Assembly: GCA_963850905.1 (NCBI GenBank)
Contig: CAWKMU010000003.1
Coordinates: 800,001 to 864,000 of the forward strand
DNA: 64,000 bases
Source of the DNA: an uncultured Gemmatimonadales bacterium
GTDB taxonomy: Bacteria > Gemmatimonadota > Gemmatimonadetes > Gemmatimonadales > Gemmatimonadaceae
Direction: 5' to 3'
The position numbers and the translations under genes are program-made. A model generated the notes under the pieces. It was not told the origin of the DNA. It saw only the letters and a program-made list of their open reading frames with translations, and ran no database searches. Positions 335-63,987 of the stretch are shown here, piece after piece (the stretch's first letter is position 1; every line of letters starts with the position of its first letter).

Positions 335-505
335 AACTGCGGGGCCAGGGGTTGGGGGGTCAGGGACCAGGAACAAATCGAAGGGCCAGTGGCTGCGCAC
401 CGCGACCGACCTTGGACCGGTAGGGGCGACGCAGTGCGTCGCCCGTCGTTGTCGTTGCGGTTGTCGTTCCCTGACCCCTGACGCCCGACCGCTGACCCCG
501 CCGTT
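335..505 (+). repeat. Composite heptamer-arm/GTAG-REP element, full copy
   Basis: AACTGCGGGG...CCCCGCCGTT ends; GGGGTCA-like and TGACCCC arms; core GTAGGGGCGACGCAGTGCGTCGCCC at 420-444. Confidence 0.9.
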
Positions 506-539
506 TGCTTTCCTGTCCTCCCCTCTTTCCTGTCCTCCC

Positions 540-1475
540 CTATTGATGCGCCAGCGCCGGCATGATCGACTGTACGGAGCTCAATCGCTCACCGAGCGCG
601 GCCGGCACCACCTGGCACGCCGCCACCGCCGCGGGTCTCGCATACCGCCGCAGCGCCTCGCGGGCGGGCCCGAGCACCAGGTCGCCCAGTACGACACCGA
701 GCGAGCCAAGCACGACAAGCTGGGGATTCAACACATCGACGAGCGTGGCCATCCCGGACCCCAACCACCGCGCGGACTCCGTGACCACCTCGACCGCGTC
801 AGGGTCGCCCGCCAGCGCCGCATCCACGATCGTGCGGATCTCGGGGGTGGTCGGCCAGCGCGCCGGGAACATGCGGTGCGCCAGCAGCGTCAGTCCCCGG
901 CCCGACGCGTACTCCTCCCACCCGCCGCCTGCCTTCACACGAGCGTCGTCCGGGGGAGCGACACGTAGCGTCGCCAGCTCACCCGCAGTCTCGCTCGCCC
1001 CCCGCAGGATCTTCCCGTGCACGATGATCCCGGCACCCATCCCGGTACCGTAAACCAGGAAAATCATGTGCTCGAGGCCCGCCCGGATGCGCCCAGCCCC
1101 AAACCAGAACTCGGCCAGCGCCCCCGCCTTGGCATCGTGGTCGAGATACACGGGCAGCCCCGGGAACCGGGCCTCGACCGCGTCCTTGAGTCTCAGATTA
1201 TGCCAGCCCGGGAGGTTGGGCGGATTGATGATCACCCCCTCGATTGCCCGAAGCGGTCCCGGCGAGACGATACTGATCGCCTTGGGCGTCCGACCCGCCG
1301 CACGGGCCGTCTGCAGCGTCTCATCGATCAACCCAGCAAGCGCGGGAAATGTGTCCGCGAACGGGCGCGCCCCCTCCGTCGGGTGGCTCACCCGCTGCAA
1401 GGTGTCGCCCGTCACCGTCGATTCTACGATCGCAGTCTTTGTCCCGCCGATGTCGACGCCAATGATCGTGTCCAT
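540..1475 (-). CDS. ROK family sugar kinase (glucokinase-like)
   Basis: N-terminal GVDIGGTK ATP-binding motif, DAKAGALAE, GTGMGAGII, GELA; no N-terminal HTH; lacks the Cys-rich Zn motif. Confidence 0.9.
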   Translation of the reverse strand: MDTIIGVDIGGTKTAIVESTVTGDTLQRVSHPTEGARPFADTFPALAGLIDETLQTARAAGRTPKAISIVSPGPLRAIEGVIINPPNLPGWHNLRLKDAVEARFPGLPVYLDHDAKAGALAEFWFGAGRIRAGLEHMIFLVYGTGMGAGIIVHGKILRGASETAGELATLRVAPPDDARVKAGGGWEEYASGRGLTLLAHRMFPARWPTTPEIRTIVDAALAGDPDAVEVVTESARWLGSGMATLVDVLNPQLVVLGSLGVVLGDLVLGPAREALRRYARPAAVAACQVVPAALGERLSSVQSIMPALAHQ

Positions 1476-1590
1476 AAATGATCGTCGATTGACTGTGGGA
1501 GCTGGCCGATTCGACGCCGTTCGTGGTGCCGTGGGCCGCGCAGGCGGCGTGGTGCCGCCCCTCTAAAGGCGAGCGGAGACCACGACGAAG

Positions 1591-4500
1591 CTAACGACGA
1601 CGGGTTGCGAACGGGCGCACGACACGGCGCTGGTTGGTGCGTACCGCGACAATCCCGGTCACGACACCCAGGAGGATCAGGACGCACCACGCGACGACGG
1701 TCTGCGTGGTGGGTCCCGGGCTGCGGAGGGGAGGGCGCGCGAGCGGATCGCCAACGACCGTAAACGCCGCCCAGTCTGCAGTTCGCACACCGCGCGCGAT
1801 CGCGTCGCGCTTCGCGGACTCGAGCGCGTCCCCCACCGGGAGACCGCGGGCCATCGCGGCGTAGAACGCGGCCACGATCGGCACAATCGCCCGGTCGCCC
1901 ACTCGCCACTGCGTCGCCACGACCGAGCGCGCTCCGGCAGCGAGCAGAGGCACGGTCAGCCCCTGCACCCCATCGCCGTCGATCACGACCCCGCCCGCGG
2001 TGCGGCACCCCGACAACACCACCAGATCGGCGTCGAGGCGCAGTGACGCCAGTTGCATCGGCGTCACGAAGCCGGATTCTCCACTCCCCGCCGCGAGCAC
2101 CAACGCGGTCCGCGCCACACTCCGCTCATCGACGAGCGCGTGAGTCGCGACATGAATCACGCGATACCCATCGAGTGGCGCATGCAGCAGGTACGCGGCG
2201 CTCGCCGCCTCTCGCAACCGGACGTCGGCGGACGGCGCGTACCGGGCCACGAGCCGCGCCTCCTCCGCGGACGCGCTGAGGCGCTCGAGGCCACCGTTCG
2301 AATCGGCCACGTCGCGATACGGATTGACCGATGTGCGCTCGGCACCCCCCGGCAGCACTGGAAACGCGGGATCCCCCAGCGCGAGCAGTCGTGGCGGCCG
2401 CCGATCCCCGCCGGCCGGGTGCGGTCGCCGCCAGAGAGCTCGCAGTACGGCGGCCGACGGAGCGATCGTGATCGCATACTTCGCCGCCAGCGGTTCTCCA
2501 TCCGAGGTGCGGAGCGCGTCGAAGGGAACACGATAGATCGGGCCGTCGGGCACGATGATGAGATGCGTCACGTCGGGTCCGAGCTCGCGCAGGGCGACAC
2601 CCAGAAGCGATCGGCCGATCGTGGTCGACAGCGCGACTGCATCATCGCCGCCCTCGAGCAACGCCACGAACCGCTCGATCGGGCCCAACAACGAGTCCGC
2701 ACTGGGAGCCGTGTACGCCTGCAACACCGCAGAACGCAGCCCAAGCGGCGACCGGACCGGAGACTGCGCGATGACGAACACGGTGGTGGGTGCACCATAG
2801 GCACCGGTGACGAATTCCACGAAGGCCGTATGGCGATCCGGCAGCACGGCCGCCACCGAGTCCGCCTCACCCTGTTCGCCAGTGGCGCGCGCGGCAACGT
2901 CCCCGCTCCGGGTCAGGCTGCCCGGCGGCTTCGCTGCCGCGTCCGACGACGTGTCCACCGCCGCGTCGCGCAGCGCGGCGAGGCGGACCAGCCGATTCGC
3001 CAGATCGCGCGCGCGACGTCGCTCGGCCAGCGCAAACGCGACCGACGGACGCTGCGCCGCCAGCACGGCAAGCACCGTCGCGGTCGCGGCGTCGCGGTCG
3101 TTCGCTTCGGTCGCTCCAACCTGAAAGACGTACGGCCGCAGCGCGCGGTCGGTGAGCGTGCCGCGCCAGGCGTCGAGCTCGTCCTCCGCGGCCGTCATCT
3201 CGAGATCCGTTCGGTCCAAGAGACCTTGGCGCGCTTCGGTCTCCGCCAGAAATGCCCGCGCGGCATATCGCATGACATGCTCCGCGGTATCGAGGGTCTG
3301 CAGGTACCGCGTGAAGGCCGCACCTGCAGCCGCTGGCCGATCCTCGGCGAGCGCGAGCCGGCCCCGATCGACATCCAGACTCGCGTACCACCGCGGTTGC
3401 CGACGCGCCCGAGATAACGCTTCCGCAGCCACCAGCGAGCGCTCGGCGGCCGGCAGATCGCCGGCACGAATATCGATCGCGACAAGGTCTCGCCACTCCT
3501 CGAACTCCGCCGGGTCCCCGATCTTGTGGTCGAAGTCGCGGGCTTGCTGCGCCAGATCGCGGGCGACCGACCACTGCCCCGCATCGACGGCGAGATCCGC
3601 GCGGTACGTGCGCACGAGCGCCCGCCCGCTCTCATCCTGCATCGTGTCGTACAGCGCCGTCGCGCGATCGAGGTAGGTCCCCGCACTCACGAGATCGTTG
3701 AGCAGGAGCGCCACGGACGCGAGGCCGACATTCGCAGACGCGAGCGCGTACAGATTGTGCGATGCATCCGCCTCGGCTTGCGCGGCGAGCACGTATTCCT
3801 TGTACGGCCCGATGTCGCCGCGGTTGTGGAAAATGTCTCCGTGGCGCATCAGCGTCTCGGCCAGCGTTGCGCGGTCGTGCACCCGACGCTCGATCCGCTC
3901 GACCGTGGTTAACACGACCGCGCTCGAGTCGTACGCAGCGCTCAACTCGAGGCCAAGCGCGAGGGCGCGTAGCGCACGCGCCTCCTCGCGCGGTTCACCG
4001 GCGCGGTGCGCGAGCACCGCGGCCGCCCGCGCGCGCGTGGCTGCGTCCGGATGGGACAGCACGGTGGCAAAGAGCGCCCGGCGCACGGCGATGGCAGCCT
4101 CGAGGTCGCTCACGTGGGGAGGGATCACGCGCGCCGCGGTATCGAGCAACGCGTTGCCGATGGAGATCCCGAGCTGCGCCGCGCGATTGACCGATCTCCC
4201 GACGAGCGCCTCGCTCTCCGCTGTGCGATCCGGGATCGAGCGAGCCATGACTCGGGCACGGACAAACGCACTGTCCGCGCGGGCCTGCAATCCCCGGGCG
4301 TCATACGACCAGCCGAGGCCCAACGCCGCGTAGACCGATACGGCATCGGCACCCGAGACACCCGCCTGGCGCGCGCTCGATGCGACTGGCATCAGCGCCG
4401 TCAGCGCCGCGTCGGCGTCATCGTATCGGTAGGTGAACCGCGCGATGGTCGCCAGGCCGAGTGCCGAGAGTCGGTCGCCCGGGTCTGCCGCGACCGCCTT

Positions 4501-4638: not shown

Positions 4639-4658
4639 GCAGGGAACTTAGGTGACCT

Positions 4659-4815
4659 GGGCCGGGACCAGGGGTCCGTGGGGCTCGGGTCGGGGAACAA
4701 ATCATAAAGCCGACCGCGCCCCGCGGCTGCCCCCGGACCGGTAGGGGCGACGCATTGCGTCGCCCGTCGTTGTCGCGGCGGGGGTTGCCGTTCCCCGAGC
4801 CCTGGCCCCCACCCC
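4659..4815 (+). repeat. Composite heptamer-arm/GTAG-REP element, diverged copy
   Basis: GGGAACAAATC, core GTAGGGGCGACGCATTGCGTCGCCC at 4741-4765, GTCGTTGTCG..GTTCCC right part; ends approximate. Confidence 0.85.
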
Positions 4816-6087: not shown

Positions 6088-6263
6088 CGCGCCTCCGGCT
6101 AGATAGTGGATCTCGGCTAGCGGGGCGCGGCCCGGCGGCGCGTGGGCGAACTAGGCCGCCGAGCTCATGGTCTTCTTGTCCGACCTAGGCCGCTTCTGTC
6201 CATCTCGGCCCCGCTCTTCGGGCCGAGAGGTGGACGATCGAGAAAACGAGTCGTAACTCGTTG

Positions 6264-6554
6264 TCAGGCCGTCGCTTCCCCAGTTGTGGGGTCGATCACT
6301 CGCGTGACGCGATGGACGGCGTTCGCAGGAAATCCGCCGCGCTTCGCATGTTCGAGGATCGCATCGGCGTTCGCCGCATTGTAGACGCAGAACAGCTTGT
6401 CGCCCGTGACGTAGCTCTCGACCCACTGCACGTCCTTGCCCTCGGTGGTCATGTCGTGCAGCACCTTATTCGACGAGGCCGAGATGCCTTGCAACTCCTG
6501 CTGTGTCAGTTTGCCTGCACCGGCGAGCTCGCGCTCGATGACGAACTTGGGCAT
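6264..6554 (-). CDS. DUF4242 domain protein (96 aa)
   Basis: MPKFVIERE...WVESYVTGDKLFCVYNA...EHAKRGGFPAN pattern; start at internal ATG 6554. Confidence 0.85.
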   Translation of the reverse strand: MPKFVIERELAGAGKLTQQELQGISASSNKVLHDMTTEGKDVQWVESYVTGDKLFCVYNAANADAILEHAKRGGFPANAVHRVTRVIDPTTGEATA

Positions 6555-8162: not shown

Positions 8163-8357
8163 AACGGCGGGGCAGGGGTCAGGGGCAGGGGTCAGGGGTC
8201 AGGGAACAATCGAAAGGCCGATCGCAGCGCACCGCGACCGGCCTCGGACCGGTAGGGGCGACGCATTGCGTCGCCCGTTGTTGCGTTGGGGTTGTCGTTC
8301 CCTGACCCCTGACCCTTATCCGCCGTTCCCCCGCCCCTGACCCCTAATCCCGCCGTT
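8163..8357 (+). repeat. Composite heptamer-arm/GTAG-REP element, full copy
   Basis: AACGGCGGGG, (GGGGTCA)n, inner hairpin, core 8252-8276, (TGACCCC)n, duplicated CGCCGTT end; between convergent genes. Confidence 0.92.
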
Positions 8358-9657: not shown

Positions 9658-9898
9658 ACCGCACGATCCAGCCGTAGACCGGTAGGGGCGACGCCCTGCG
9701 TCGCCGTGCCGCGACCGCACGATCTAGCCATGGACCGGTAGGGGCGACGCCTCGCGTCGCCCTCCGTACACGATCACGACATTCGGGGAAAACCACGATC
9801 CGGCCCTCGGCGGGTAGGGGCGACGCATGCGTCGCCCGTCTTGGGCGTACCGCGATCGTTGAGAGGTTAGACCGGTAGGGCGACCCACCGCGCGCCCG
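9658..9898 (+). repeat. Cluster of four same-orientation GTAG-REP cores
   Basis: Cores start at 9682, 9738, 9814 and 9875; the first two share the flank ACCGCACGATCYAGCCRTRGACCG. Confidence 0.88.
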
Positions 9899-10990: not shown

Positions 10991-11195
10991 AGGGGCAAGG
11001 GGTCAGGTTTCAGGGGTCAGGTACCAGGGGAGAACCGTAGAGGCCGTGCCTGATATCCGGGCATGGTTGTATTTGATTTGACGGAAAGCGCAACTCCCGC
11101 GAACCCAGCACCGGACTGATGCTCGCTTCATCGCTGCCGATAGCTTTTGGTAGTCGGTGTTCCCTGACCCCTGGCCCCTGACCCCTGACCCCCGC
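10991..11195. repeat. Inverted heptamer arms (GGGGTCA/TGACCCC) enclosing unrelated interior sequence
   Basis: Arms match the family; the ~125-nt interior has no REP core or inner hairpin; divergent intergenic region upstream of ispG. Confidence 0.75.
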
Positions 11196-11199
11196 TCTT

Positions 11200-12424
11200 T
11201 TGCTCCTCCGCCGCACTACCGTCACCGCCGACGTCGGTGGCGTGCCCATCGGATCCGCGCACCCCATCGTGGTGCAGTCGATGACCAACACCGACACTGC
11301 CGACGCAGCGGGCACGGCAGAGCAGGTGGTGGCGCTGGCACGCGCGGGTTCGCAGCTCGTCCGGATCACGGTCAACAACGACGAGGCAGCGGCGGCGGTG
11401 CCCGAGATCGCGCAGCGCATCGCGGACGCAGGACAGCCGGTGCCGATCGTCGGAGACTTTCACTACAACGGCCACCTGCTACTCGCCAAGTACCCGGAGT
11501 GCGCGCGGGCGCTCGCGAAATACCGCATCAATCCCGGCAATGTCGGTGGGAAACGGCGGGACGAAAACTTTCGCGCCATCATCGAGATGGCGATGGCGAA
11601 CGGCAAGCCGGTCCGCATCGGCGTGAACTGGGGATCGCTCGATCAGGATCTGCTCACCACGCTGATGGACGAGAACGCGCGGCAGGCCGAGCCGCTCGAC
11701 GCGCGCGATGTGTACATCGAGGCCATGCTCCAGAGCGCGCTGCGGTCCGCCACCCTCGCCGAAGAGACAGGCCTCGGCCACGATCGCATCGTGATCTCCG
11801 CCAAGGTCTCGGTCGTTCGCGATCTCGTCGACGTGTACCGCCGCCTCGCCGCCCGGTGCGACTATCCGCTGCACCTCGGGCTGACCGAGGCAGGCCTTGG
11901 CACCAAAGGCGTCGTCGCGAGCACCGCCGGCCTCTCGATTCTGCTCGCCGAAGGCATCGGCGACACGATCCGTGTCTCACTGACACCCAAGCCCGGTGGC
12001 GACCGCACGGAAGAGGTGCTGGTCGCACAGCAAATCCTGCAGTCGCTCGGGACTGCGCAGCTTCGCCCCGCAGGTGACCGCGTGTCCCGGATGCGGGCGG
12101 ACGACGTCGACGTTCTTCCAGCACATGGCGGAAGACATCCAGACCTATCTGCGGGAGCAAATGCCCATCTGGCGAGCGAAATATCCAGGCGTCGCCGACA
12201 TGCGCGTCGCGGTCATGGGCTGCGTCGTCAACGGACCCGGCGAGTCGAAGCACGCGAACATCGGCATCTCGCTCCCCGGCACGTTCGAGGAACCCAAGGC
12301 GCCCGTCTACGTCGACGGCAAGCTCGCGGTCACGCTGCGTGGCGACAGCATCGTCCCCGAGTTTCTCGAGATTCTCGAGGACTACGTCGCCAAGCGGTAC
12401 GGAGCCGCTGAGGTCCAGAGCTAG
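11200..12424 (+). CDS. ispG: (E)-4-hydroxy-3-methylbut-2-enyl-diphosphate synthase, one frameshift (probable sequencing error)
   Basis: [50 protein letters not shown] and [13 protein letters not shown] lie in the +1 frame; removing one G at 12049-12051 gives [20 protein letters not shown] (span 1225 = 3n+1). Confidence 0.93.
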
Positions 12425-12429: not shown

Positions 12430-12563
12430 AACGGCGGAGTCAGGACCCGGGACCAAATCGCCAGCCTGTCGCAAGCTCGCCGTTGACGCCGACATGTAGG
12501 GGCGGGCTTCAGCCCGCCCCTTTGTCGTTGCGGTTGTCGTCCCCTATCGCCTAATCCGCAGTT
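12430..12563 (+). repeat. Composite element with variant REP core
   Basis: AACGGCGG...CCGCAGTT ends; core GTAGGGGCGGGCTTCAGCCCGCCC at 12496-12519; family right part TTGTCGTTGCGGTTGTCGT. Confidence 0.85.
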
Positions 12564-14553: not shown

Positions 14554-16863
14554 ATGTCATCGACATCGATGGACCGGCGGGAGTTCTTGCAGGACCTCGC
14601 GGCCGGCGGGCTCGTGCTGGTCATCACCGCAACCGGCTGCCGCCGCTTCTCTGATCGCTACGCAGCGGGAGGCGCCCAGACCGGCGGGACGTCGGACCCT
14701 GCGTCCACTGCGCCATCCTTTGCCCCGGCCGTGTATCTCCGCATCGCCAATGACGGCGATGTCACCGCCATCGTCCACCGATCCGAGATGGGCCAGGGCT
14801 CGAAGACGACGCTGGCGATGATCCTCGCCGACGAGCTCGAAGCGGACTGGTCTCGCGTCCACGTCGAGCAGGCCCCGGGCGATGACAAACGCTACGGCAA
14901 TCAGGACACCGACGGCTCGTGGAGCATTCGCGGCTTCATGCAGCCATTCCGCGAGGCGGGGGCCACCGCGCGCACGATGCTGGAGCAGGCTGCCGCGCAG
15001 CAGTGGAACGTGCCGGTCGCCGATGTGCGAGCCAACCAGCACCATGTGATTCATACAGCCAGCGGGCGCTCGATCGACTACAAGGATCTCGTCGCCACGG
15101 CGCGCACACTCACCGCCCCGGCGAAGGAGCAGCTGCGACTCAAGCAGCCGTCTGAGTTCCGGTTGATCGGCAAGGGCGTCCCCATGGTCGATCTGACGGA
15201 CATGACGGTCGGACACGCGCGCTATGGCATCGACCAGCATTTGGCCGGGATGAAGTTCGCCGTCATTGCTCGGCCACCCGTGTATGGCGGCAGACTCACG
15301 CGCATCGACGATCGCGCGGCTCGTGCAGTGCCCGGCGTGGAGCGCATCGTGCGGATTCCCTTCACCGCGCCGCCGTCCGGGATGTCGCCACTGGGCGGCG
15401 TGGCCGTCGTCGCCAGCAACAGCTGGGCGGCCATCAAGGGACGCGACGCACTCAAGCTCACCTGGCGCGACGGCCCCAACGCCGCGTACACCAGCGCGAC
15501 ATACCGAACGGCGCTGGAGCGTTCAGTGCGCTCGGCCGGCAAGGTGGCCCGAACCCAGGGCAACGCGGCCGCTGCGCTCGAGCGTGCCGCGCAACGGCTC
15601 AGCGCCGAGTACTACATCCCCCACCTGGCGCATGCCTCGATGGAACCGCCCGCCGCGCTGGCGTCGGTGACCGCGGCGGGCTGCGAAGTGTGGGCGCCCT
15701 CGCAGTCGCCCCAAGGCGCGCGCGACGTGGTCGCGAAGGCGCTCGGCATGCCGGCCGACAAGGTCACCCTCCACGTCACGTTGCTGGGCGGCGCGTTCGG
15801 ACGAAAATCGATGCACGACTTCATCGTCGAGGCCGCGCTTCTCTCCCGCGCCGTCGGCGCACCCGTCAAGGTGCTGTGGACCCGCGAAGACGATCTGCAA
15901 CACGACTACTATCACGCCGTCGCGGTCGAGCGCCTCGAGGCCGGACTCGACGCCAACGGCAAGGTCGTCGCCTGGCTCCATCGGTCGGCACTGCCCGCGA
16001 TCAACTCGACGTTTCAGCAGAACGTGTTGTATCAGGATGAGGGCGAGCTCGGGATGGGCGTGACCGATTTCCCGTACGCGATCGCGAATCTGCGAGGGGA
16101 AGCGGGGCCGGCCACGGCACACACACGCATCGGATGGCTCCGGTCGGTCATCAACATTCCCCACGGCTTCGCGATCGCATCGTTCATCGACGAGCTCGCG
16201 CACGCGGCGCACCGCGACCCGAAGGACTTCATTCTCGACTTGCTCGGGCCCGACCACGTCGTCGACATGGCGCACGCCGGCATCACGGGTAAACCGTCGA
16301 ACTACAATGCGTCGTTCGAGGACTATCCGATCGATACGGCGCGATTCCGCGGCGTCGTGGAGCTCGCGGCGCAACAGTCGGGATGGGGTCAGCCACTGAG
16401 CGCAGGACAAGGCCGCGGCATCGCGGTCCACCGCAGCTTCCTGACCTACGTCGCGTCCGTCGTGCAGGTCGAGGTGCGTCCGGACGGTGCGATCACGATT
16501 CCACGTGTCGACGTCGCCGTCGATGCGGGCTTCGTCGCGCATCCCGAACGCGCGGTCTCACAGATCGAAGGCGCGACGATCATGGGATTGGGCAACGCGC
16601 TGCACAGCGAGATCACCTTCACCGGCGGTCGCACCGACCAGTCGAACTTCGATCGGTACCAGGTCCTTCGGATGGATGAAGCGCCCCACGAGATTCGCGT
16701 GCACCTCGTGCCAAGCACGGCCAAACCTGCCGGCATCGGCGAGCCCGGCCTGCCGCCCACGGCGCCCGCACTCTGCAACGCGATCTTCGCCGCCACGGGC
16801 CGCCGGATTCGCTCACTGCCGATTGCGGACCAGTTGAAGCCAGGCGCGATAGCGGAAAGCTGA
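14554..16863 (+). CDS. iorB: Xanthine dehydrogenase family molybdopterin-binding subunit (isoquinoline 1-oxidoreductase beta-like), Tat-exported
   Basis: DRREFL Tat motif; [38 protein letters not shown]. Confidence 0.9.
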
Positions 16864-17017
16864 ACGGCGGGATCGGGGATCAGGGGCCAGGGAACACATC
16901 GAGAAGACGGTCACGGTGCACTGCGACCGGCCTTGGACCGGTAGGGGCGACGCATTGCGTCGCCCGTTGTTGTCGTTGCGGTTGCCGTGCCTGACCCCTG
17001 ACCCTGACCCCGCAGTT
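16863..17017 (+). repeat. Composite heptamer-arm/GTAG-REP element, full copy overlapping the iorB stop
   Basis: TG|AACGGCGGG ... core 16941-16965 ... CCCCGCAGTT. Confidence 0.92.
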
Positions 17018-17245: not shown

Positions 17246-17265
17246 GTAGGGGCGCATGCGTCGCC
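17246..17265 (+). repeat. Degenerate GTAG-REP core
   Basis: GTAGGGGCGCATGCGTCGCC (core with internal deletion). Confidence 0.6.
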
Positions 17266-19146: not shown

Positions 19147-19314
19147 GGCCGGGATAGGGGTCAGGATCAGGGAACAAACACAGAGGCCGGTCACGATTCA
19201 CAGTGGCCGGCATTTGGACCGGTAGGGGCGACGCATTGCGTCGCCCGTCCTTGTCGTTGCGAGTTGTCGTTCCTGACCCCTGACCCCTGACCCCGGACCC
19301 CCGATCCCGCCGTT
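19147..19314 (+). repeat. Composite heptamer-arm/GTAG-REP element, full copy
   Basis: Core 19222-19246; inner hairpin GCCGGTCAC..GTGGCCGGC; (TGACCCC)3; between convergent genes. Confidence 0.9.
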
Positions 19315-21027: not shown

Positions 21028-21242
21028 GAAGGGTCACGGATTTGGGTCAGGGAACAAATCGTAAAGCCGACCGCGCGCACCGTGGCTGGCCTTGGGCCGG
21101 TAGGGGCGACGCTGTGCGTCGCCCGTTGTTGTCGCGGCGGTTGGCAGTTGCGTGTTGTTTCCTTAAGCCCTGACCTCGCCGTTAAGCCTTACTTTGTGTG
21201 TACTTCCCTGATCCCTAGCCCCTGACAATTGACCCCGCCGTT
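21028..21242 (+). repeat. Composite heptamer-arm/GTAG-REP element with duplicated right end
   Basis: GGGAACAAATCG, core 21100-21124, two CGCCGTT ends (21183 and 21242). Confidence 0.85.
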
Positions 21243-29378: not shown

Positions 29379-30614
29379 GTGAATCCAGGCTTTGCTCCGC
29401 GGAGCGCCGGACGCGCCGCGTTTGCGTTCATTTTCGTCACCGTCGCCCTCGACATGTTGGCGCTCGGCATCATCGTGCCGGTCCTGCCGACGCTCATCGT
29501 GTCGTTCGAGGGCGGATCGATCGCGCGGGCGTCGACCATCACCGGATGGTTCGGCTTTGCCTGGGCGCTGATGCAGTTCCTCTGCTCACCGACGATCGGC
29601 ACGCTCTCCGATCGCTTTGGGCGCCGACCGGTGATCCTGCTGTCGAACCTTGGTCTCGGGCTCGACTACCTCGTGATGGCCGTCGCGCCGTCGGTCGGCT
29701 GGCTGTTTCTCGGCCGAGTGCTGTCGGGCATCACCTCATCGAGCTACCCGACGGCAACAGCGTATGTGGCTGACGTGACCCCAGCCGACCAGCGCGCGGC
29801 GCGTTTCGGCATGCTCGGCGCAGCGTTCGGCCTCGGGTTCGTCATCGGGCCGGCCGTGGGCGGACTCCTCGGCGCTATCGATCTCCGCCTGCCGTTCTGG
29901 GTCGCCGCCGCGTTGAGTCTGGCGAATTTCGCCTACGGGTTTTTCATTCTGCCCGAGTCGCTCCCCCGAGAGCGGCGGGGCCGCGTGGAATGGCGCATGG
30001 CCCACCCGTTCGGAGCGATCGCGTTTCTCCGGTCGCGCGCCGCACTCCTGGGACTCGGCGTCGCCGCATTTCTCTATTACGTCGCCCACGAAGTGTTGCC
30101 GAGTCTCTACGTGCTGTACACCGAGTACCGATACACCTGGAACGAACGACAGATCGGGATTTCGCTCGCGGCCATCGGCGTGTGCACCACGATCGTGTCC
30201 GCCTTCCTCGTCGGCCCGGTCGTCGCGCGACTCGGCGAACGTCGCTCACTCGCGTTGGGATATGCGTGCATGACGACCGCCTTCTCCGTGTTCGCCATCG
30301 CGGCCGCGGGGAACGCGTTCCTCTGCGGGATCCCGTTCGTCTCGCTGAGTGGCATCGCCAGCCCATCGCTGCAGGCACTCGCAACCCGTCACGTCGACAG
30401 CACCGAGCAAGGCCAACTCCAAGGCGCGCTGAGCAGCCTGCGGGGCGTCGGCATGATGATCGGACCGCTGCTCTTCACCCAGACCTTCACCTGGTCCCTG
30501 CAACTCCCCCACCCATTCCCCGCCGCCCCCATGTGGCTCGCCGCCACATGCGTGGGTATTGCCGGATTTGCGGGATGGCTGGCGACCGCGCCACGGGCAG
30601 CGCAAGCGGTGTAG
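29379..30614 (+). CDS. TCR/Tet family MFS efflux transporter
   Basis: 12 TM; motif A GTLSDRFGRRP; LGRVLSG; antiporter motif GFVIGPAVGG. Confidence 0.9.
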   Translation: MNPGFAPRSAGRAAFAFIFVTVALDMLALGIIVPVLPTLIVSFEGGSIARASTITGWFGFAWALMQFLCSPTIGTLSDRFGRRPVILLSNLGLGLDYLVMAVAPSVGWLFLGRVLSGITSSSYPTATAYVADVTPADQRAARFGMLGAAFGLGFVIGPAVGGLLGAIDLRLPFWVAAALSLANFAYGFFILPESLPRERRGRVEWRMAHPFGAIAFLRSRAALLGLGVAAFLYYVAHEVLPSLYVLYTEYRYTWNERQIGISLAAIGVCTTIVSAFLVGPVVARLGERRSLALGYACMTTAFSVFAIAAAGNAFLCGIPFVSLSGIASPSLQALATRHVDSTEQGQLQGALSSLRGVGMMIGPLLFTQTFTWSLQLPHPFPAAPMWLAATCVGIAGFAGWLATAPRAAQAV

Positions 30615-30621: not shown

Positions 30622-30787
30622 AACGGCGGGGTTAGGGGTCAGGGGTCAGGGGAACAGACCGAAAGGTCTGGTTCACTGTGCACAATGCCCGCCTTGGACC
30701 GGTAGGGGCGACGCATTGCGTCGCCCGTCGTTGTCGTTGCGGTTGTCGTTCCCTGACCCCTGACCCCTGACCCCTGACCCCGCCGTT
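30622..30787 (+). repeat. Composite heptamer-arm/GTAG-REP element, full copy
   Basis: AACGGCGGGG, core 30702-30726, (TGACCCC)4, GCCGTT; between convergent genes. Confidence 0.92.
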
Positions 30788-39899: not shown

Positions 39900-40023
39900 C
39901 TAGACGTTGGACGTTAGACGCTAGGCGCTGGAACCAACCGGGGAGCCGGGTGCGGTGCACCGTGACCTGCCCACTATGTTAGTCTCCAGCGTCCAGCGTC
40001 CAGCGTCCAGCGTCTAGCGTCTA
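39900..40023 (+). repeat. Element with a different heptamer arm type (TAGACGY / GCGTCYA)
   Basis: Left TAGACGT-TGGACGT-TAGACGC-TAGGCGC; right CAGCGTC x4 plus TAGCGTC; interior GCCGGGTGCGGTGCACCGTGACCTGC resembles the family inner hairpin. Confidence 0.8.
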
Positions 40024-40878
40024 ATGTCTCTCTTCACCACCGTCGCTGACCTCTACATCTATCCGATCAAGTCGGCGCGCGGCATCTCGGTGTCGGCGCT
40101 CGAGTTCGACGCGCGTGGTGCGAGCGGCGATCGTCGGTGGATGCTCATCGACCGAGACGCTCAATTCCTGTCTCAGCGCCGCATCGCTCGGATGGCCTTG
40201 ATCCAGGTCGCGCTCGACGCGGACGCCCTGGTCGTCGATGCGCCCGGTATGCCGACGCTGACGCTCCCGCGCAACGGTCAACATCCGCCATCGGGGGAGC
40301 GATTGGTCGCGGGCCTCTTCGAGGACGCCGTTGCCGTGCAGCGCGTCGACGCGGAAGTCGACCGCTGGTTCACGACGTTCCTGCGCTACCCGTGCTCGCT
40401 GGTCACCATGCCTGATGACACCCAGCGGCAGGTCGACCTCACGTACGCTCCAGCCGGCCGGACGGTCGCCTTCGCTGATGCGTTCCCCGCGCTGGTGCTC
40501 GGCACCGGATCGATCGATCAGCTCAATCGGCGCCTAGCGGCGAAAGGAGAGCCGCCCGTTGGCGTCAATCGGTTTCGACCCAACATCCTCCTGTCGGTCG
40601 CGGTGCCGCACGCCGAGGACGACTGGTGTCGCCTCGAGGGCCCGCGGATCGCGTTCGACATCGTGAAGCCCTGCGCACGGTGCTCGATTCCCGCCGTCGA
40701 TCCCGACCGCGGCGTCAGGGGGAAGGAGCCAACCAGGACGCTCAGCGAATACCGGACCCGCGACGGCAAGGTGTTATTCGGCCAGAACGCCCTGCACACC
40801 CGGCCCGGCCGTCTCGAGCGTGGCGACCGATTGACGGTCACCTCCGCTGCGCGATGCGCGGAAAAAGTCAAGCAATAA
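40024..40878 (+). CDS. MOSC domain molybdoprotein (YcbX/mARC-like)
   Basis: IYPIKS, DRRWM, FADAFP, RFRPNI, KPCARC, FGQN. Confidence 0.92.
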   Translation: MSLFTTVADLYIYPIKSARGISVSALEFDARGASGDRRWMLIDRDAQFLSQRRIARMALIQVALDADALVVDAPGMPTLTLPRNGQHPPSGERLVAGLFEDAVAVQRVDAEVDRWFTTFLRYPCSLVTMPDDTQRQVDLTYAPAGRTVAFADAFPALVLGTGSIDQLNRRLAAKGEPPVGVNRFRPNILLSVAVPHAEDDWCRLEGPRIAFDIVKPCARCSIPAVDPDRGVRGKEPTRTLSEYRTRDGKVLFGQNALHTRPGRLERGDRLTVTSAARCAEKVKQ

Positions 40879-40985
40879 CTGCGGGGGTCAGGGGTCAGGG
40901 GTCAGGGAACAACACAGTTGGCAACTCGTAGTGCGCTCCGACTAGCCTATCGTTTTGTTCCCTGACCCCAGATCCCTGACCCCTG
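40877..40985 (+). repeat. Heptamer-arm element without REP core, overlapping the MOSC stop
   Basis: T|AACTGCGGGG, (GGGGTCA)3, GGGAACAA...TTGTTCCC, TGACCCC; unique interior. Confidence 0.85.
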
Positions 40986-41697: not shown

Positions 41698-43104
41698 GTG
41701 CGGGACATTGCAGCGTCTAACGTCCAGCGTCTACATTCACCTGAAGTGTCTGTCTCACACGTGAGCGTCGCCGCCGGAGCGACTCGATTTCCGTCGCAGC
41801 GGTCCCGGCGCCCGACCGCGCGGGCAAGTCGAGTTGCCGGCCTCGTTGGCCTGTTGCTCGCGGCGCATGGCTGCAAGTCGAGCACCGCGCCCAACGCCAA
41901 CAACAGCGGGACACTGGTCATCACCGTCAAACCCACCAACGGCGCCACGCCGCTCGTCGTCGTCACCGGAGCAAGCGGTGACACGGCAGTCGTGACGAGG
42001 GTTGACACCACGCTCTTCGTCCCAGCCGGCACGTACACCGTCGCGAGCGCAAGCGCGGTCGTGGTGGGCCCGGTCACCACGGCCTTCTACGCCGGCACGG
42101 TGAAAGGCAGTCCGGCGACGCTCGCGACAGGCGGAAAGGCGGTCATCTCGATCACTTTTGCGCTGCGGCCCGGCTCTGGCCACCTCTGGGTAGTCGGTGG
42201 GCCGACCGGACACGCCGTGGCCGCCGCGTACGCGGGCGCCAACTTGGACAGCGGCGCTGCCACCGTCTCACTCGCTGTCGCTGGCCAATACGGCGCGTTC
42301 GATGCGGGCGGCAATCTGTGGGTTGCCGATTCGAGCACAAACACGCTCACGGGGTACTCCGCGGATCAACTCGCGGCGAGTGGCACGCCAACTCCCACGG
42401 TGACGATCACCAGCGCCGCGCTTCGGGGCCCCGTCGGCCTGGCCTTCGATCACACGGGCACGCTCTGGGTCTCGAACTTCGACGGGAACACGGTGGTGGG
42501 TTTCTTTACCAACCAACTGCGCGCCGGCGGCAACCAGAAACCGGCCGTTGTGATCAGCGGGATCGCATTCGACGGACCCGCTCGCATCCAGTTCGATACC
42601 GCGGGAAATCTGTGGGTACCCAATACGCTCACCAGCACCGTCGTGGCCATTGCGTCGTCCAGCCTGGCTGTGAGTGGCACGCCACTGCCAGCGGTCACGC
42701 TGACCTCGGACAGTGGATCACTCAACGGGCCGAGTGGCGTCGCATTCGACGCATCGGGCGATCTCTGGGTCGCGAACTCCGTCGGGAGCAGTCTCGTTGC
42801 CTTCAGCCCATCGGAGCTCGTGGCGAGCGGCCCGGCGGTTCCATTTGAGTTCCTGATTCCGCCGGCATCGACCGGCTCGCCGACCGCGATCGCCTTCGAC
42901 AACAGCGGCGACCTCTGGACCAATAGCACCACGGGCGGGGCCGTACTGGGCTACACAGGCGTCCAACTGGCCGTTGGTGATACCGTCCCACCCGCTGTGG
43001 TCGTGTCCGTCGCGAGTCCGCCTTCGACCCTCGCGTTCAACCCCGCGTCATCGAGCCTGCCCATCGCGGGTGGCGCCTTCGCCCGCATCCGGCGATCGCA
43101 TTAG
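41698..43104 (+). CDS. NHL-repeat beta-propeller lipoprotein
   Basis: Five or more P.G.AFD..G.LWV repeats; lipobox AHGC; start uncertain. Confidence 0.82.
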   Translation: MRDIAASNVQRLHSPEVSVSHVSVAAGATRFPSQRSRRPTARASRVAGLVGLLLAAHGCKSSTAPNANNSGTLVITVKPTNGATPLVVVTGASGDTAVVTRVDTTLFVPAGTYTVASASAVVVGPVTTAFYAGTVKGSPATLATGGKAVISITFALRPGSGHLWVVGGPTGHAVAAAYAGANLDSGAATVSLAVAGQYGAFDAGGNLWVADSSTNTLTGYSADQLAASGTPTPTVTITSAALRGPVGLAFDHTGTLWVSNFDGNTVVGFFTNQLRAGGNQKPAVVISGIAFDGPARIQFDTAGNLWVPNTLTSTVVAIASSSLAVSGTPLPAVTLTSDSGSLNGPSGVAFDASGDLWVANSVGSSLVAFSPSELVASGPAVPFEFLIPPASTGSPTAIAFDNSGDLWTNSTTGGAVLGYTGVQLAVGDTVPPAVVVSVASPPSTLAFNPASSSLPIAGGAFARIRRSH

Positions 43105-43148: not shown

Positions 43149-43329
43149 GTAGGGGCGACGCAATGCGTCGCCCTCTGGCTCCGTAAGGCCGGGTTCGATA
43201 GCCGCCGCCTGTCCATGTAATCCGGGGTTACTCGCTCCGTAGGGGCGACGCATGCGTCGCCCTTATTTCCGTAGGGCCGGGATCGGCGTCACCCCCTGCT
43301 TGTCCATGCAATCGGTGGTCATTCGCTCC
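43149..43329 (+). repeat. Two diverged ~90-nt tandem units, each starting with a GTAG-REP
   Basis: Cores at 43149 and 43239, each followed by TCCGTARGGCCGGG...TGTCCATGYAATC...TCGCTCC. Confidence 0.85.
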
Positions 43330-44243: not shown

Positions 44244-44371
44244 AACGGCCGATTTGGGGTCTGGGGTACCCGCAACAAACCCAAAGGGCCAGTCACGGTG
44301 CGCTGTGACTGGCCCTCGCGTTTTGTCGCAGTCACCCCAGACCCCAGACCCCAAACCCCAGACCCCCGCTG
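44244..44371 (+). repeat. Element with CCCCAGA-type arms and inner hairpin, no REP core
   Basis: AACGG..TTTGGGGTCTGGGG; AGGGCCAGTCAC-GGTGCGCT-GTGACTGGCCCT; (CCCCARA)4. Confidence 0.85.
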
Positions 44372-47776: not shown

Positions 47777-47943
47777 AACTGCGGGGCCAGGGGTGAGGGG
47801 CCAGGGACCCAATCGAAGGGTCAGTGACGGTGCACTGAGACCGGCCTCGGACCGGTAGGGGCGACGCATTGCGTCGCCCGTCGTTGCCGTGGCGTTTGGT
47901 CGTTGTTCTCGACCCCTGGTCCCTGATCTCTGACCCCACCGTT
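47777..47943 (+). repeat. Composite heptamer-arm/GTAG-REP element, full copy
   Basis: AACTGCGGGG, core 47855-47879, TGACCCCACCGTT. Confidence 0.9.
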
Positions 47944-51107: not shown

Positions 51108-51165
51108 GGATGTAGAATCTCCAGAAACCCACGGAGCGCAAGCTGACCATCACACGTTCCTGCAG

Positions 51166-51205
51166 GTCCCCGACCCCTGACCCCTGATCCCTGACCCCCG
51201 TAGTT
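51166..51205 (+). repeat. Isolated right arm of the heptamer element
   Basis: CCCCGACCCCTGACCCCTGATCCCTGACCCCCGTAGTT. Confidence 0.7.
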
Positions 51206-51293
51206 CTTTGGTCGTGTACGAAATCTCGCGCCGGTGGGCGCGCTGGCCTGACTCTTTCAGGTTCACCTCGCCGATTCCATCGGGGCGGCAGCG

Positions 51294-52388
51294 ATGCGGG
51301 TGAAGGAGCCCAACGCGCATGGCCTGACGGCAGCACATGTGACGCCGGCGCAACACTTCGGTGAGGCGTCGACGGCCCCACATGTCGCGGCCTCAGCAAC
51401 CGACCGGCCTTTGTCGCTGCCGGAATTCCCCCAGGCTGTCTATCGAGGTAATGCGAGCTCGGTCGGCGTGGCATTCGGGATGGCAGTGGGGCCCGGCGAA
51501 GGACGCATGGCGCTCGACGCACTGGAAAGCGTCGCGACGTTCTTCCCCGACGCGAGCCGGTGGGTCCTCGACGATTGCACGTTCGATGGCACCTACGATC
51601 TCCTGGCGCGCTGGATCGCGACGAACGGCGGCCATCTGCTCCGCAACGCCATCCCGCACGGCTACCGCGGCATCGCCAGCTCGTTCTACGCGCTGCTCGC
51701 GGCGATCGCGCGCGAAGAGCCGAGCCTCGACATGGCGATCAAGATCGATCCCGACACGTGCCTGCTCGGCGGCGACCTGCTCGAGCGCATCCGCCGGCGA
51801 TTCACGGATCACGGGCCGGGCATCGTCGGCGCCTACCGGGTCGGCGCTGGGGGACGCCCCCGTGTCTTCGGCCACATCAGGCGGAACATGCTCGTCGATC
51901 TCTTGTTGCCGGTCGGGCCCCACAAGACTTGGCGCTCGCTGCGCGTCGGGTTGCCGTACTGGGCGCGCTTCCTGCCGAGCGCGAGACGCAACGGATATGT
52001 CTTCGGTGAGCACGTGCTCGGCGCACTCGCCGCCATCCACGGCGACACACTCCGCGCCCTCGCCAGGTCCGGGTTCCTCGCGGTGCCGCCGCGGTTCCGA
52101 GCGCTCACGGTCCAGATGGACGTGCTCCTCGGCCTCGGCGTGCGGTCGGTCGGGCACAGCCTGATCGATCTCGACAGCGCGCCCCCTGCGCCGGCGACTG
52201 TGTGGCTTCAGTTTCTTCCGCCGGTCCCCGTCAGTGCCGAATCGTTGGTCGAGCGCGGCATCCTCGCGGTGCATCCCGTGAAGGGCACGCCCGATGGCGA
52301 TGCGATGCGCGCCGTTTTCCGCCGCCACCGACACCCACGCCAGGATCGCCTGGCACCCACACCGCCCGCACCGGTCACGCTGACGTAG
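51294..52388 (+). CDS. Putative GT-A fold glycosyltransferase-like protein
   Basis: LESVATFFP, VLDDCTFDGTYD, KIDPD (DxD), AVHPVK; start uncertain; TAG stop lies inside a REP. Confidence 0.55.
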   Translation: MRVKEPNAHGLTAAHVTPAQHFGEASTAPHVAASATDRPLSLPEFPQAVYRGNASSVGVAFGMAVGPGEGRMALDALESVATFFPDASRWVLDDCTFDGTYDLLARWIATNGGHLLRNAIPHGYRGIASSFYALLAAIAREEPSLDMAIKIDPDTCLLGGDLLERIRRRFTDHGPGIVGAYRVGAGGRPRVFGHIRRNMLVDLLLPVGPHKTWRSLRVGLPYWARFLPSARRNGYVFGEHVLGALAAIHGDTLRALARSGFLAVPPRFRALTVQMDVLLGLGVRSVGHSLIDLDSAPPAPATVWLQFLPPVPVSAESLVERGILAVHPVKGTPDGDAMRAVFRRHRHPRQDRLAPTPPAPVTLT

Positions 52389-52474
52389 GGGCGACGCCAT
52401 GCGTCGCCCATGATTACGGCCGTCCGCGCTGTCTGGCCATACGCGGGTAGGGGCGGCGCAATGCGTCGCGGCCC
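52385..52474 (+). repeat. Two same-orientation GTAG-REP cores
   Basis: GTAGGGGCGACGCCATGCGTCGCCC at 52385-52409; degenerate core from 52447. Confidence 0.85.
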
Positions 52475-55676: not shown

Positions 55677-55700
55677 GTAGGGGCGACGCATGCGTCGCCC
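55677..55700 (+). repeat. Solitary GTAG-REP core
   Basis: GTAGGGGCGACGCATGCGTCGCCC. Confidence 0.85.
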
Positions 55701-56517: not shown

Positions 56518-56612
56518 CCGCTCCCGGTGCGGAGCATGTTGTACCGGTACGTGACAGGTCGAACGACATCACTAGCACTTCCACCACGAGATTCGAGAGG
56601 AGAGGCAGATCA

Positions 56613-58421: not shown

Positions 58422-58431
58422 GTAGGACCTG

Positions 58432-58587
58432 AACGGCGGGATCAGGGGTCAGGAACAAATTCAAAGGCCGGTCACGGTGCACAGTGACCGGCCTTTGGAC
58501 CGGTAGGGGCGACGCATTGCGTCGCCCGTTGTTGTCGTTGCGGTTGTCGTTCGCCGACCCCAAACCCCAAACCCCAGACCCGCAGTT
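58432..58587 (+). repeat. Composite heptamer-arm/GTAG-REP element, full copy overlapping the RCC1-gene stop
   Basis: Perfect inner hairpin AAAGGCCGGTCAC..GTGACCGGCCTTT; core 58503-58527; left arm GGGGTCA type, right arm CCCCAAA/CCCCAGA type. Confidence 0.92.
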
Positions 58588-60086: not shown

Positions 60087-60153
60087 TGGAATTCCCCGTT
60101 TGCTGTGCAAGCAGGACGAGCGGCGCGGGATGGGAGAAACGGTTGTGTGGCCG

Positions 60154-61101: not shown

Positions 61102-61114
61102 GATGCCACCGGAG

Positions 61115-62467: not shown

Positions 62468-62786
62468 GTTCACATTCCCTGCTGGGCGCCCCCCACTGCA
62501 GGCGCGTGGTGTTCCGATGCAACCGATAGCTTCCCGCCCCGTGAGAGGTAAGTCAACCCAAGCCTCTCTGTCTCCGAGGGTTACCGCCGTCGTGTCCACC
62601 CCAAACAGGTGTTACGCCCACGAGGGAGCGATCAACTCCTGCACCCCGGTAGAGACCCGGCATTGCGTGTGACACATGTCACAGCCCCGCAGTGCGCCCG
62701 ACGCTTTATTTGGGGCTCCCCGCACCACACGCGCGCGGTACATCGATCGGCCGCGCCCCTGTACCGTAACCCTGCGAGCCAACCGG

Positions 62787-63035
62787 ATGGGGAATCTGTT
62801 CAATAGCATGGAGTTCGTCTGGCGCAAACGCGCCGACGAGAGCGAAGAGCCCCAAGTCCCGCGCAACGTGTCGCGAGCCGAGCGCATCCGTCGCGAGCGC
62901 GTGGCCGCCCGCATGCGCCGCGACCCCGTATTCGCGGACTTCACCGCCGAAGCCCAAGACAAGCTGATTCGCGCCGCGCTGACGGACAGCTGGGATTCGG
63001 TCTTGCCCCGGCTACCGAGGATTGGGCCGGAGTAG
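62787..63035 (+). CDS. Small hypothetical protein (82 aa)
   Basis: ATG-initiated, GC3-rich ORF ending just before a repeat element. Confidence 0.5.
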   Translation: MGNLFNSMEFVWRKRADESEEPQVPRNVSRAERIRRERVAARMRRDPVFADFTAEAQDKLIRAALTDSWDSVLPRLPRIGPE

Positions 63036-63045
63036 CGGGACGGCA

Positions 63046-63158
63046 AACGGCGGGGTCGGGGATCAGGGATCAGGAGCAAATCGAAAGGCCAGTCGCCGTG
63101 AACTGCGACTGGCCTTCTGAGTTAGTTCCCCCGACCCCTGACACCTGACCCCGCCGTT
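63046..63158 (+). repeat. Heptamer-arm element with inner hairpin, no REP core, overlapping the msrA stop
   Basis: AACGGCGGGG...AAGGCCAGTCGC-CGTGAACT-GCGACTGGCCTT...CCCCGCCGTT. Confidence 0.88.
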
Positions 63159-63838
63159 CAGCCCTTGTACTCCACCCACAACCCCGGCCACTCGCTCTTG
63201 AGGTGCTCCACCTTCGGCTTGTCGTTGATAATGATGTACAGCGAGGCCGGGTGGTGCACGTAGTAATCCTGGTGATAGTCCTCGGCCGTGTAGAACGCCT
63301 TCAACGGCGAGACCTCCGTCACGATGCGAGCAGGGAACACGTTCGCTTTCGTTAGTTGGTCGACATACGCCTTGGCGATGCGTTCCTGCTCAGGCGATGA
63401 GAACCAGATCGCCGAGCGATATTGCGTGCCCACATCGGGGCCTTGCCGATTTAGTTGTGTCGGATCGTGGCCCACCGAGAAGAACACCTTCAGCAGCTGG
63501 CCATACGAGATTTGCGACGGATCGTACACGATCTGCACCGACTCAGCGTGGCCCGTCGCCCCGGTGCTGACCTCTTGATATGAGGGCGACACGGCGTCGC
63601 CGCCCGAGAATCCCGACGTCACTTTGATGACGCCCTTCACGTGTTCGAACACTGCCTGGATTCCCCAGAAGCACCCTCCGGACAGCACCGCGGTCTCCTT
63701 GCCCGCCGTGGGCGCCAACGGCGCATCGACGATGGGCTCGGGCACTCGGACCGCGGGCTCAGGGCCGCTCGTTAAGACGGTGGCCGAGGGAGTGAATGTC
63801 AATGAGGCAACAACCAGGCGTAGGATCGGAAGAAGCAT
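63158..63838 (-). CDS. msrA: Peptide methionine (S)-sulfoxide reductase with signal-like N-terminus
   Basis: GGCFWG, GHAESV, HDPTQLNRQGPDVGTQYRSAI, AEDYHQDY; GGAG RBS. Confidence 0.95.
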   Translation of the reverse strand: MLLPILRLVVASLTFTPSATVLTSGPEPAVRVPEPIVDAPLAPTAGKETAVLSGGCFWGIQAVFEHVKGVIKVTSGFSGGDAVSPSYQEVSTGATGHAESVQIVYDPSQISYGQLLKVFFSVGHDPTQLNRQGPDVGTQYRSAIWFSSPEQERIAKAYVDQLTKANVFPARIVTEVSPLKAFYTAEDYHQDYYVHHPASLYIIINDKPKVEHLKSEWPGLWVEYKG

Positions 63839-63899
63839 GGTACGCTCCTCTAAGGAGACGCTCTGTAGACGCTCTGTACGTAGCGAAAGATAGTGCGTT

Positions 63900-63987
63900 T
63901 GGGATCGGGGGTCCCCGGAGCAAATCGCGGCCGCTTACAATAACGTGTCTCTAACCGGGTTGCCTTTCCCGATCCCGAGTCCCGGCG
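63900..63987 (+). repeat. Degenerate heptamer-arm element
   Basis: GGGATCGGGG..GGAGCAAATCG...TTCCCGATCCCGAGTCCCG. Confidence 0.5.

Follow-up and report, generated by a model that had tools for sequence, protein, structure and literature searches.

The window analyzed here is a stretch of 64,000 nucleotides from an uncultured Gemmatimonadales bacterium (G000:C3:800001-864000; the genome, G000, comprises 4.49 Mb in 6 contigs and is 82% complete). Between its genes lie copies of an element that we call the composite, in which a single repetitive extragenic palindrome (REP) of the type associated with RAYT nucleases is enclosed, together with a second hairpin, by inverted arms of heptamer repeats. 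On balance, we favor the reading that the composite is a mobile unit, likely copied to about 70 intergenic sites by a RAYT encoded 95 kb upstream of the window, and probably at replication forks.

Composite elements in the window

A composite consists of a left arm, an inner hairpin, a GGACCG linker, a REP beginning with GTAG, a tail and a right arm; the REP core is GTAGGGGCGACGCA-N-TGCGTCGCCC. The original prediction, made from the letters of the window, listed ten copies of 135-215 nt carrying this core, and the coordinates were borne out when we rechecked them (134-215 nt). Nine of the ten do carry the core, preceded by a GGACCG-type linker, but the tenth (12430..12563, + strand) is a shell and tail holding a second REP type, GTAGGGGCGGGCTTCAGCCCGCCC, with a GACAT linker, and relatives of that REP flank a second RAYT gene at C3:875 kb. 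The AAC..GTT ends proposed for the family are found at the start of 7 copies and the end of 9, respectively. The predicted inner hairpin is present, but it is frequently mispaired in composites (490 cells from 49 copies: 343 consensus, 24 compensatory, 23 G-T, 56 A-C and 44 broken).

All 16 REPs in the window, including those of the composites, are on the + strand, a point that the earlier list did not make. Composites located between convergent genes are found at 8163..8357 (REP at 8252), 19147..19314 (REP at 19222), 30622..30787 (REP at 30702) and 58432..58587 (REP at 58503). In the congeners that we compared (called G001, G002 and G004), the first of these sites is empty in G004 as well as in G001 (the aligned flanks are 2-3 nt apart, vs 206), the second holds a different palindrome, the third is occupied in G004 by a composite whose interior is inverted, and the fourth has a sister hairpin with different arms in G001. 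The remaining composites are at 335..505 (GTAG at 420; G004 also has a copy and G001 has none), 4659..4815 (end approximate; the ends are decayed, the REP is at 4741, and the relatives have other small shells here), 16863..17017 (sharing with the upstream gene the final base of its stop codon; REP at 16941; in G004 a sister hairpin whose heptamer arms differ), 21028..21242 (right arm doubled, REP at 21100; the G004 site is near-empty) and 47777..47943 (REP at 47855; sister hairpins with different heptamer arms in both G004 and G001). Two further decayed REP-like palindromes, absent from the earlier list, are seen at window positions 17246-17264 and 26-49. The gene ending 8 nt before the composite at 30622 (window 29379-30614) encodes a major facilitator superfamily transporter like Tet(A)-family efflux pumps, scoring below all curated cut-offs for such families.

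The 16 REP matches in the window compare with 0 in 30 order-3 Markov windows, and the composite at 30622 folds far better than expected (z = -10.9 as RNA and -11.6 as DNA, with 0 of 200 shuffles equally good). In size and structure the composite resembles a miniature inverted-repeat transposable element (terminal inverted repeats, non-coding, within 70-300 nt). It carries one REP, so it is not a REPIN, which has two inverted REPs.

A cognate RAYT gene flanked by the same REP

The assignment of the core to the GTAG REPs of a RAYT proved right: a RAYT gene flanked by the core lies elsewhere in the genome, 95 kb upstream of the window (C3:704426-705016, found by tblastn). It encodes 197 aa in an intact frame, with the HuH (DHLH), WQ and YxxxNP motifs all intact, and there are 7 copies of this REP within 1.5 kb of the gene, in both orientations. 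The protein scores 26.5 bits against PF01797 (cut-off 23), many of its homologues are named RayT, and the best PDB match of its profile is TnpA-REP (4ER8, E 1e-4); a PDB search with the single sequence gave no significant match. The genome search with PF01797 found only the second RAYT gene and not the cognate one. That second gene (C3:875054-875545, 163 aa) is 11 kb past the window, and the REPs flanking it are of the GACAT-linker type, which is found in tail-to-tail doublets; many of these lie within heptamer shells.

Orthologues of the cognate RAYT (55–58% identity) are found in G001, G002 and G004, where they are REP-flanked too, and these are the same three of nine congeners that contain the linker and REP; the other six give weak or no matches to the RAYT query, and the linker-REP pattern was found in 0 of 31 more distant relatives. 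The linker beside the RAYT gene matches the type that has expanded in each genome, GGACCG in G000 and CGGCGG in G004; over about 2 Mb of matching DNA, GACCG and GGCGG linkers number 70 and 52 in G000, and 10 and 104 in G004. Judged by its length, motifs, HuH-Tyr insertion, the three basal G-C pairs of its REP and the presence of double-foot copies, the cognate protein appears closer to subclass 2.4 (group 4) than to groups 2 and 3. The RAYT gene is 20 kb from dnaA in G004 (at C1:2289648) and about 300 kb from it in G000 and G001, from which it follows that the REPtron has moved.

Genome-wide distribution

G000 contains 291 copies of this REP in 225 loci, 20 of which hold both orientations, that is, true inverted doublets; G004 has many such doublets. 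Searching for the linker, REP and tail together, we identified 72 composite cores, including 47 with a full inner hairpin. According to our own gene caller, on which all gene contexts in this work rest, 66 of the 72 cores are intergenic. Convergent gaps are overrepresented among them, making up 25 of the 66, compared with 435 of all 2796 gaps (odds ratio 3.3).

In the GTDB collection the 20-mer of linker and REP matches at 29 loci, and 26 of these belong to three congeners (uncultured Gemmatimonadales). The exact REP without the linker is found in 12 of 301 genomes of the phylum, with more than 100 copies only in G000 and G004. The junction 21-mer of the composite has 0 matches in IMG/VR.

The REP is the conserved part of the element. 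Among 35 copies located by their flanks and without using the REP (38 rows, of which 3 were dropped, one for another REP type and two for being off register), GTAG is intact in 34, the stem is nearly invariant, and linker plus REP show 0.66 mismatches per 31 nt; the inner hairpin and tail have 72–74% pairwise identity. REPs in composite singlets have 0.16 mismatches, compared with 0.33 in inverted pairs, a comparison that is partly circular as composites are defined by intact linker and tail.

Gain and turnover at orthologous sites

G004 is collinear with G000 over the 2.0 Mb compared, with 92% identity in gene flanks and a four-fold distance of 0.20 (C1 0-0.27, 1.07-1.47, 1.87-2.27 and >3.07 Mb and contigs C2 and C3 of G004 were covered by pattern searches alone). 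We tested 736 intergenic regions between the two genomes, of which 578 were resolved. A composite is found at 38 of the resolved G000 sites, and G004 has it at 3 of those, one of them inverted (window 30622); among the resolved regions G004 holds 1 composite of its own. The empty sites in relatives that the original prediction had asked about therefore exist: at 35 of 38 sites G004 has no composite and is either empty or holds another hairpin element. At 16 of the 18 sites resolved in both G004 and G001 the composite is absent from both relatives, which makes gain in G000 the simpler reading. With a RAYT found and empty or replaced orthologous sites at hand, a non-autonomous mobile unit is the better of the two options considered earlier, the other being a structured 3'-untranslated region (3'-UTR) RNA.

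Counting elements of any kind, 154 gaps are occupied in both genomes and 69 in just one of them, and 3 shared REP sites differ in orientation between G000 and G004. This resembles the REPIN overwriting described in 10.1101/2024.10.14.618302, in which one element type replaces another at conserved sites. Four low-depth contig sets over part of the window contain no joint that skips exactly one element, at a depth too low to be informative.

Strand polarity of the REPs

We placed the REP loci relative to replication landmarks. dnaA is at C3 1.000 Mb and the skew minimum at 0.977 Mb, three parS-like sites lie at C3 0.972 Mb, and a dif-like site, single-copy in 5 of 5 genomes, is at C3 3.365 Mb. 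Counted as + only, - only and both, REP loci number 108/4/5 left of oriC (96% on one strand), 4/14/5 right of oriC, 36/4/8 from 2.2 Mb to dif, 6/0/2 beyond dif and 28/0/0 on C4. The polarity thus flips at oriC and flips back about 1.1 Mb before dif, with a right-arm change-point at 2.26 Mb (5 of 29 vs 38 of 41 on +; 0 of 2000 permutations equally good). Composites genome-wide show +65/-3. On the left chromosome arm the GTAG strand is the nascent lagging strand. G004 has a similar distribution of 44/7/14 on the left and 4/11/4 on the near right, followed by +4/-4 and +8/-1 towards the terminus, and REP sites specific to one lineage on the left arm are 51:0 (+:-) in G000 and 16:1 in G004. The second REP type, which is mostly in doublets, is far less biased (61/40).

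REP direction on the left arm is identical in convergent, tandem and divergent gaps. We considered and rejected transcription as the cause of the polarity, with REPs on the same strand in all four gene contexts, and also a rearrangement or misassembly behind the second flip, with G000 and G004 collinear over 2.0 Mb and the G000-only gains from 2.25 Mb being 7:1 on +.

The same evidence bears on the other option of the original prediction, a structured 3'-UTR RNA (a bidirectional terminator or an mRNA stabilizer) kept by selection and spread by gene conversion, which we consider very unlikely. It would fit the enrichment in convergent gaps, the conserved occupancy of sites by some hairpin between species, the REP-less hairpin at 44244, which scores as a two-way terminator, and the role of E. 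coli REPs as 3'-UTR regulators (10.64898/2026.03.23.713779); wobble pairs also show a slight preference for the transcribed strand (74/71 vs 50/78, p = 0.052). But the orientation is the same after + genes, after - genes and between divergent genes, independent of gene direction, and 35 of 38 sites are not common to a relative of 92% identity. The pairing and database results do not favor an RNA either: mismatches in the arms overall show no excess of G-T over A-C (224 vs 251), the inner hairpin has 100 A-C or broken cells vs 24 compensatory ones, the composites at 30622 and 47777 are not called as terminators, and Rfam gives 0 matches at threshold in the window, with sub-threshold look-alikes of miRNA hairpins only. 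By analogy with E. coli REPs the composite may possibly have a secondary 3'-UTR effect; such an effect would not explain the turnover or the polarity.

Another possibility is that insertion is random and the polarity arises later, with the RAYT cutting GTAG copies on the single-stranded lagging template in each round of replication, so that these are excised, flipped between arms or selected against. The surviving orientation indeed keeps GTAG off the lagging template, the strand that IS608 needs (PMC3971601), and interiors do flip, as seen for the inverted copy of 30622 in G004 and for the 3 shared sites that differ in orientation; decay of the REPs does not lessen the left-arm bias (142:6 at 0 mismatches and 39:0 at 2-3). 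We nevertheless regard this as improbable: inverted doublets, in which one REP is always exposed, persist and are common in G004, the lineage-specific sites are already 51:0 and 16:1, and the stretch from 2.3 Mb to dif is explained no better.

Other strand markers also change before dif. After codon correction, the GC and TA skew at four-fold sites is close to -0.10 on the left arm. On the near right arm it amounts to +0.03 to +0.045, and its sign changes at 2.5-3.05 Mb, which is 0.3-0.85 Mb short of the dif-like site. Unpaired (solo) heptamer arms are strand-biased as well, with the C-rich arm on + in the left replichore and a flip at about 2.7 Mb. The asymmetric skew and the flip of solo arms suggest that forks often meet before dif. 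A 16S gene (3.19 Mb) and a strongly co-oriented gene block lie near dif and not oriC; this placement and the skew asymmetry may reflect asymmetric replication.

Three further observations were made along these contigs. Two Bac_DnaA domains occur in an open frame of 684 residues at G000:C3:2846145-2847758, in addition to the true dnaA at 1.0 Mb. At G000:C3 ~520700-521030 a tRNA-like gene is apparently interrupted by an insert of ~250 nt, possibly an intron, that is near-identical in G004. Repeated stretches are common to both ends of C3 and the initial 45 kb of C4, which suggests contig overlap or a duplicated assembly.

Heptamer shells and the origin of the composite

The modules of the composite also occur apart, as had been noticed earlier. 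REP-less shells in the window, to which no strand is assigned, include those at 10991..11200 (heptamer-arm shell with an unrelated interior, an older copy, kept in G004 and G001), 40877..40985 (variant hairpin), 44244..44370 (inner hairpin terminator-like on both strands) and 63046..63158 (with a hairpin; the same in G004, and a related hairpin with other arms in G001 and G002), as well as a small decayed shell at the window end (63900..63987); a solo right (C-rich) heptamer arm at 51165..51210 is found in G004 and G001 too. Free REPs, all on +, form a tandem group without a shell at 9682..9837 (9682, 9738 and 9814), a pair at 43149..43262 (43149 and 43239), a REP with a decayed copy at 52385..52470 (52385 and 52447) and a single REP with a CGGCGG linker at 55677..55700.

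Genome-wide, period-7 tandem pairs outnumber period-8 ones by 1038 to 114 in G000, with several unit families. Inverted arm pairs are in the G-rich-then-C-rich order in 115 cases vs 13 in reverse order. Of these 115 shells, 59 have no REP (a few being chance matches in genes), 41 hold this REP and 15 hold other REP types, mostly as tail-to-tail doublets in which the sequence outside each REP resembles the composite's tail. Heptamer units of at least five families exist side by side and take each other's place around related hairpins.

Since shells hold doublets of other REPs with composite-like tails, the composite can be read as two halves joined together, the left one from a hairpin shell and the other made of REP, tail and arm. 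At the join, 83 of 97 copies have CC at a constant position before the linker and 54 of 97 have CT, and the word GGCC(C/T)T is common to the 3' arm of the hairpin and the REP flank beside the RAYT gene. Its sequence gives the composite the look of a chimera, in which the RAYT-flanking REP is combined with a heptamer-armed hairpin family that also exists independently. For E. coli TnpA-REP, cleavage at C|T has been described, GGCC|T being a strong context (PMC3333891, PMC8266576), and strand exchange at GGCC|T just 5' of the linker, common to both parts, could have made the chimera.

The abundance of shells raises the alternative that the shell is the mobile unit, moved by another nuclease or by recombination between shells, with the REP a passenger that was inserted once or is kept repaired by the RAYT. 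The 59 shells without a REP and the 15 with other REP types are what this would predict, as is the replacement of one heptamer family by another at the same sites (154 in both genomes, 69 in one only), and the arm unit GGGGTCAG fits the GGGGWSAS motif of TIRYT-flanking repeats (PMC3733652). We judge it unlikely: no G000 gene is bracketed by paired arms (the 10 pairs of >250 nt in this 82% complete genome span ordinary genes or no gene), a regular-expression search of G000 found no TIRYT-like or GxxExxY motif, and the only two Y1 genes found in the incomplete G000 are both REP-flanked and without arms, leaving no TIRYT gene flanked by repeats. Moreover, it is the REP-bearing form that has expanded in G000, whose RAYT has the same linker.

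Other repeats were seen as well. Further heptamer families, of the AGCGTCC/AACGTCT, AGAAAGT/AGAAAGG, GACGGGT and GGGGTTT types, are present in the window (39980-40030 and 41711-41733) and genome-wide, and several local arm families lack a G-tract. At the G004 and G001 sites matching window 12430, 19147, 21028 and 44244, a GTAG-less palindrome family (GGGCGC-N-GCGCCC) brackets AGAAAG-type arms and competes for the same gaps. Genomes G005, G008, G009 and G035 have no GGGGTCA array and carry the reversed unit in abundance (the GGGGACT type, found in Nostoc too). Four PF05635 four-helix-bundle genes are clustered at G000:C3:13553-46430, with an AGAAAG-type arm directly upstream of one and, as implied by translation, of a second.

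Proposed mechanism and its weak points

We return to the reading that the composite is a mobile unit copied by the cognate RAYT. By analogy to E. coli TnpA-REP in vitro, the RAYT would bind the GTAG hairpin on single-stranded DNA and nick at C|T sites. The GTAG strand would then be joined into, or survive on, the strand synthesized as Okazaki fragments (the template of the leading strand), the reverse of the situation in IS608. Copying at replication forks would account for nearly all copies pointing one way per chromosome stretch, and the second flip at ~2.3 Mb might mark a zone where forks meet well before dif. Any terminator or mRNA-stabilizing effect would be secondary.

Several results weigh against this reading. 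The NCBIfam RAYT model gives the cognate protein 67.3 bits, below its cut-off of 80, and the G001 orthologue has an in-frame stop. A fixed C|T is lacking at the outer ends of the composite (8 of 28 left ends have one), and the near-empty sites inspected, such as 8163, 21028 and C3:244212 (few of them clean), show no common junction or target duplication, which leaves end recognition unexplained. No two of the 72 cores reach 97% identity (maximum 93%), which gives no indication of very recent copying. Turnover also affects REP-less shells, in several heptamer families; another process therefore moves shells and could have moved the composite. As to the polarity, the main puzzle is the lack of a flip at dif, and the 2.26 Mb change-point precedes those of the skew and the solo arms; the directions of genes, rRNA and KOPS-like octamers at 2.2-3.3 Mb point towards dif. 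The 23 REPs of G002 show no clear polarity, the two genomes with polarity are close kin, and G000 is 82% complete.

A bolder version, which we put forward tentatively and as doubtful, is that a group-4-like RAYT moves the whole single-REP fold-back into the nascent lagging strand, that the copies form a fossil map of the forks, and that the leftward fork routinely overruns dif so that forks meet about 1 Mb earlier. If true, the polarity would be opposite to that of IS608, and the view of singlets as dead remnants would be contradicted.

We regard the strand polarity as the most valuable result, with fork-coupled copying as its conjectural mechanism. Symmetric REPINs carry no direction and hence cannot reveal which strand is used when RAYTs spread REPs; here, ~290 directional copies, a collinear relative by which gains can be dated and the match between RAYT and linker allow the strand rule to be read. 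The results suggest that a single REP can be mobile if its fold-back derives from another, unrelated kind of repeat, that large expansions can be driven by RAYTs of groups other than 2 and 3, and that replication in Gemmatimonadales may be asymmetric.

Comparison with known systems

The system is most readily compared with the E. coli REP and bacterial interspersed mosaic element (BIME) REPtron (PMC3333891, PMC8266576; 4ER8), with which it shares a GC-rich hairpin with GTAG on its 5' side, copies numbering in the hundreds between genes, an HUH/Y1 gene that is present once and has this REP around it in both directions, tandem arrays beside that gene, and mosaic composites. It differs in having one REP and not a REP/iREP pair, a perfect stem without the E. 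coli bulge, heptamer arms around the REP, and a strong strand polarity of the copies. Like Pseudomonas REPINs (PMC3116915; 10.1101/2021.07.10.451892), the element is RAYT-associated and combines a conserved REP with variable neighboring sequence; unlike those inverted doublets, composite singlets are gained at new sites and are no more decayed than inverted pairs, whereas REP singlets are treated as decayed remnants in PMC3116915. The tandem REP arrays of SBW25, in opposite orientations on the two chromosome halves (PMC3116915), are a partial precedent for the polarity. In the literature within reach (most subscription journals and supplements being outside it), we found no report of strand-polarized single REPs or of REPs in Gemmatimonadota, and the text of PMC3733652 does not mention Gemmatimonadota.

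The cognate RAYT is similar to TnpA-Y1 subclass 2.4, or Bertels group 4 (PMC6006769, PMC5581495), in its length (197 aa vs a median of 194), WQ and YIxxNP motifs and variable HuH-Tyr insertion, and its REP is likewise long with three basal G-C pairs, with double-foot copies in G000 and G004. Its HuH motif is DHLH and not NH[IFV]H as in that subclass. Abundant REPs and REPINs have been tied to RAYT groups 2 and 3 only (PMC5581495; 10.1101/2021.07.10.451892), and group 4 is reported with low-copy flanking 16-mers (14 per replicon), compared with ~290 REPs here.

The original prediction called a single REP nested in a heptamer-arm fold-back an unfamiliar architecture; it is less unprecedented than that suggests. 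GTAG REPs nested in longer palindromes are described for Anabaena variabilis (GTAG-15 dimers) and Thermomicrobium roseum (GTAG-23) in PMC3733652, where, as here, the REP lies regularly inside a second palindrome; those cases are dimers or small palindromes, whereas ours is a single off-center REP within a fold-back of 135-215 nt that is also abundant without a REP. Heptamer direct repeats have been described (PMC4679880), and inverted pairs of G-rich heptamers are known near gene ends (GGGAATC in Xanthomonas, GGGGA(C/T)T in Nostoc; PMC4692102). Together with the GGGGWSAS terminal inverted repeats of PMC3733652, these pairs resemble our shells in being imperfect 7-mer inverted arrays near gene ends with a variable number of units; the Gemmatimonadales repeats differ in having at least five unit families and REP cargo, with no TIRYT gene found in G000.

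With IS200/IS605 elements (IS608, ISDra2; PMC3971601), the system has in common that its Y1 enzyme is related and that copies are biased in orientation, with a reversal at oriC. IS200/IS608 elements are cited there as needing the lagging template; the composite, unlike them, is non-autonomous, has the recognized strand on the leading and not the lagging template, and shows no flip at dif. Taken by itself, the element is selfish intergenic DNA of a known sort, in a form restricted to one lineage: a new variant of the REP/BIME type for which a candidate enzyme has been identified. It works like a REPIN and is not one.

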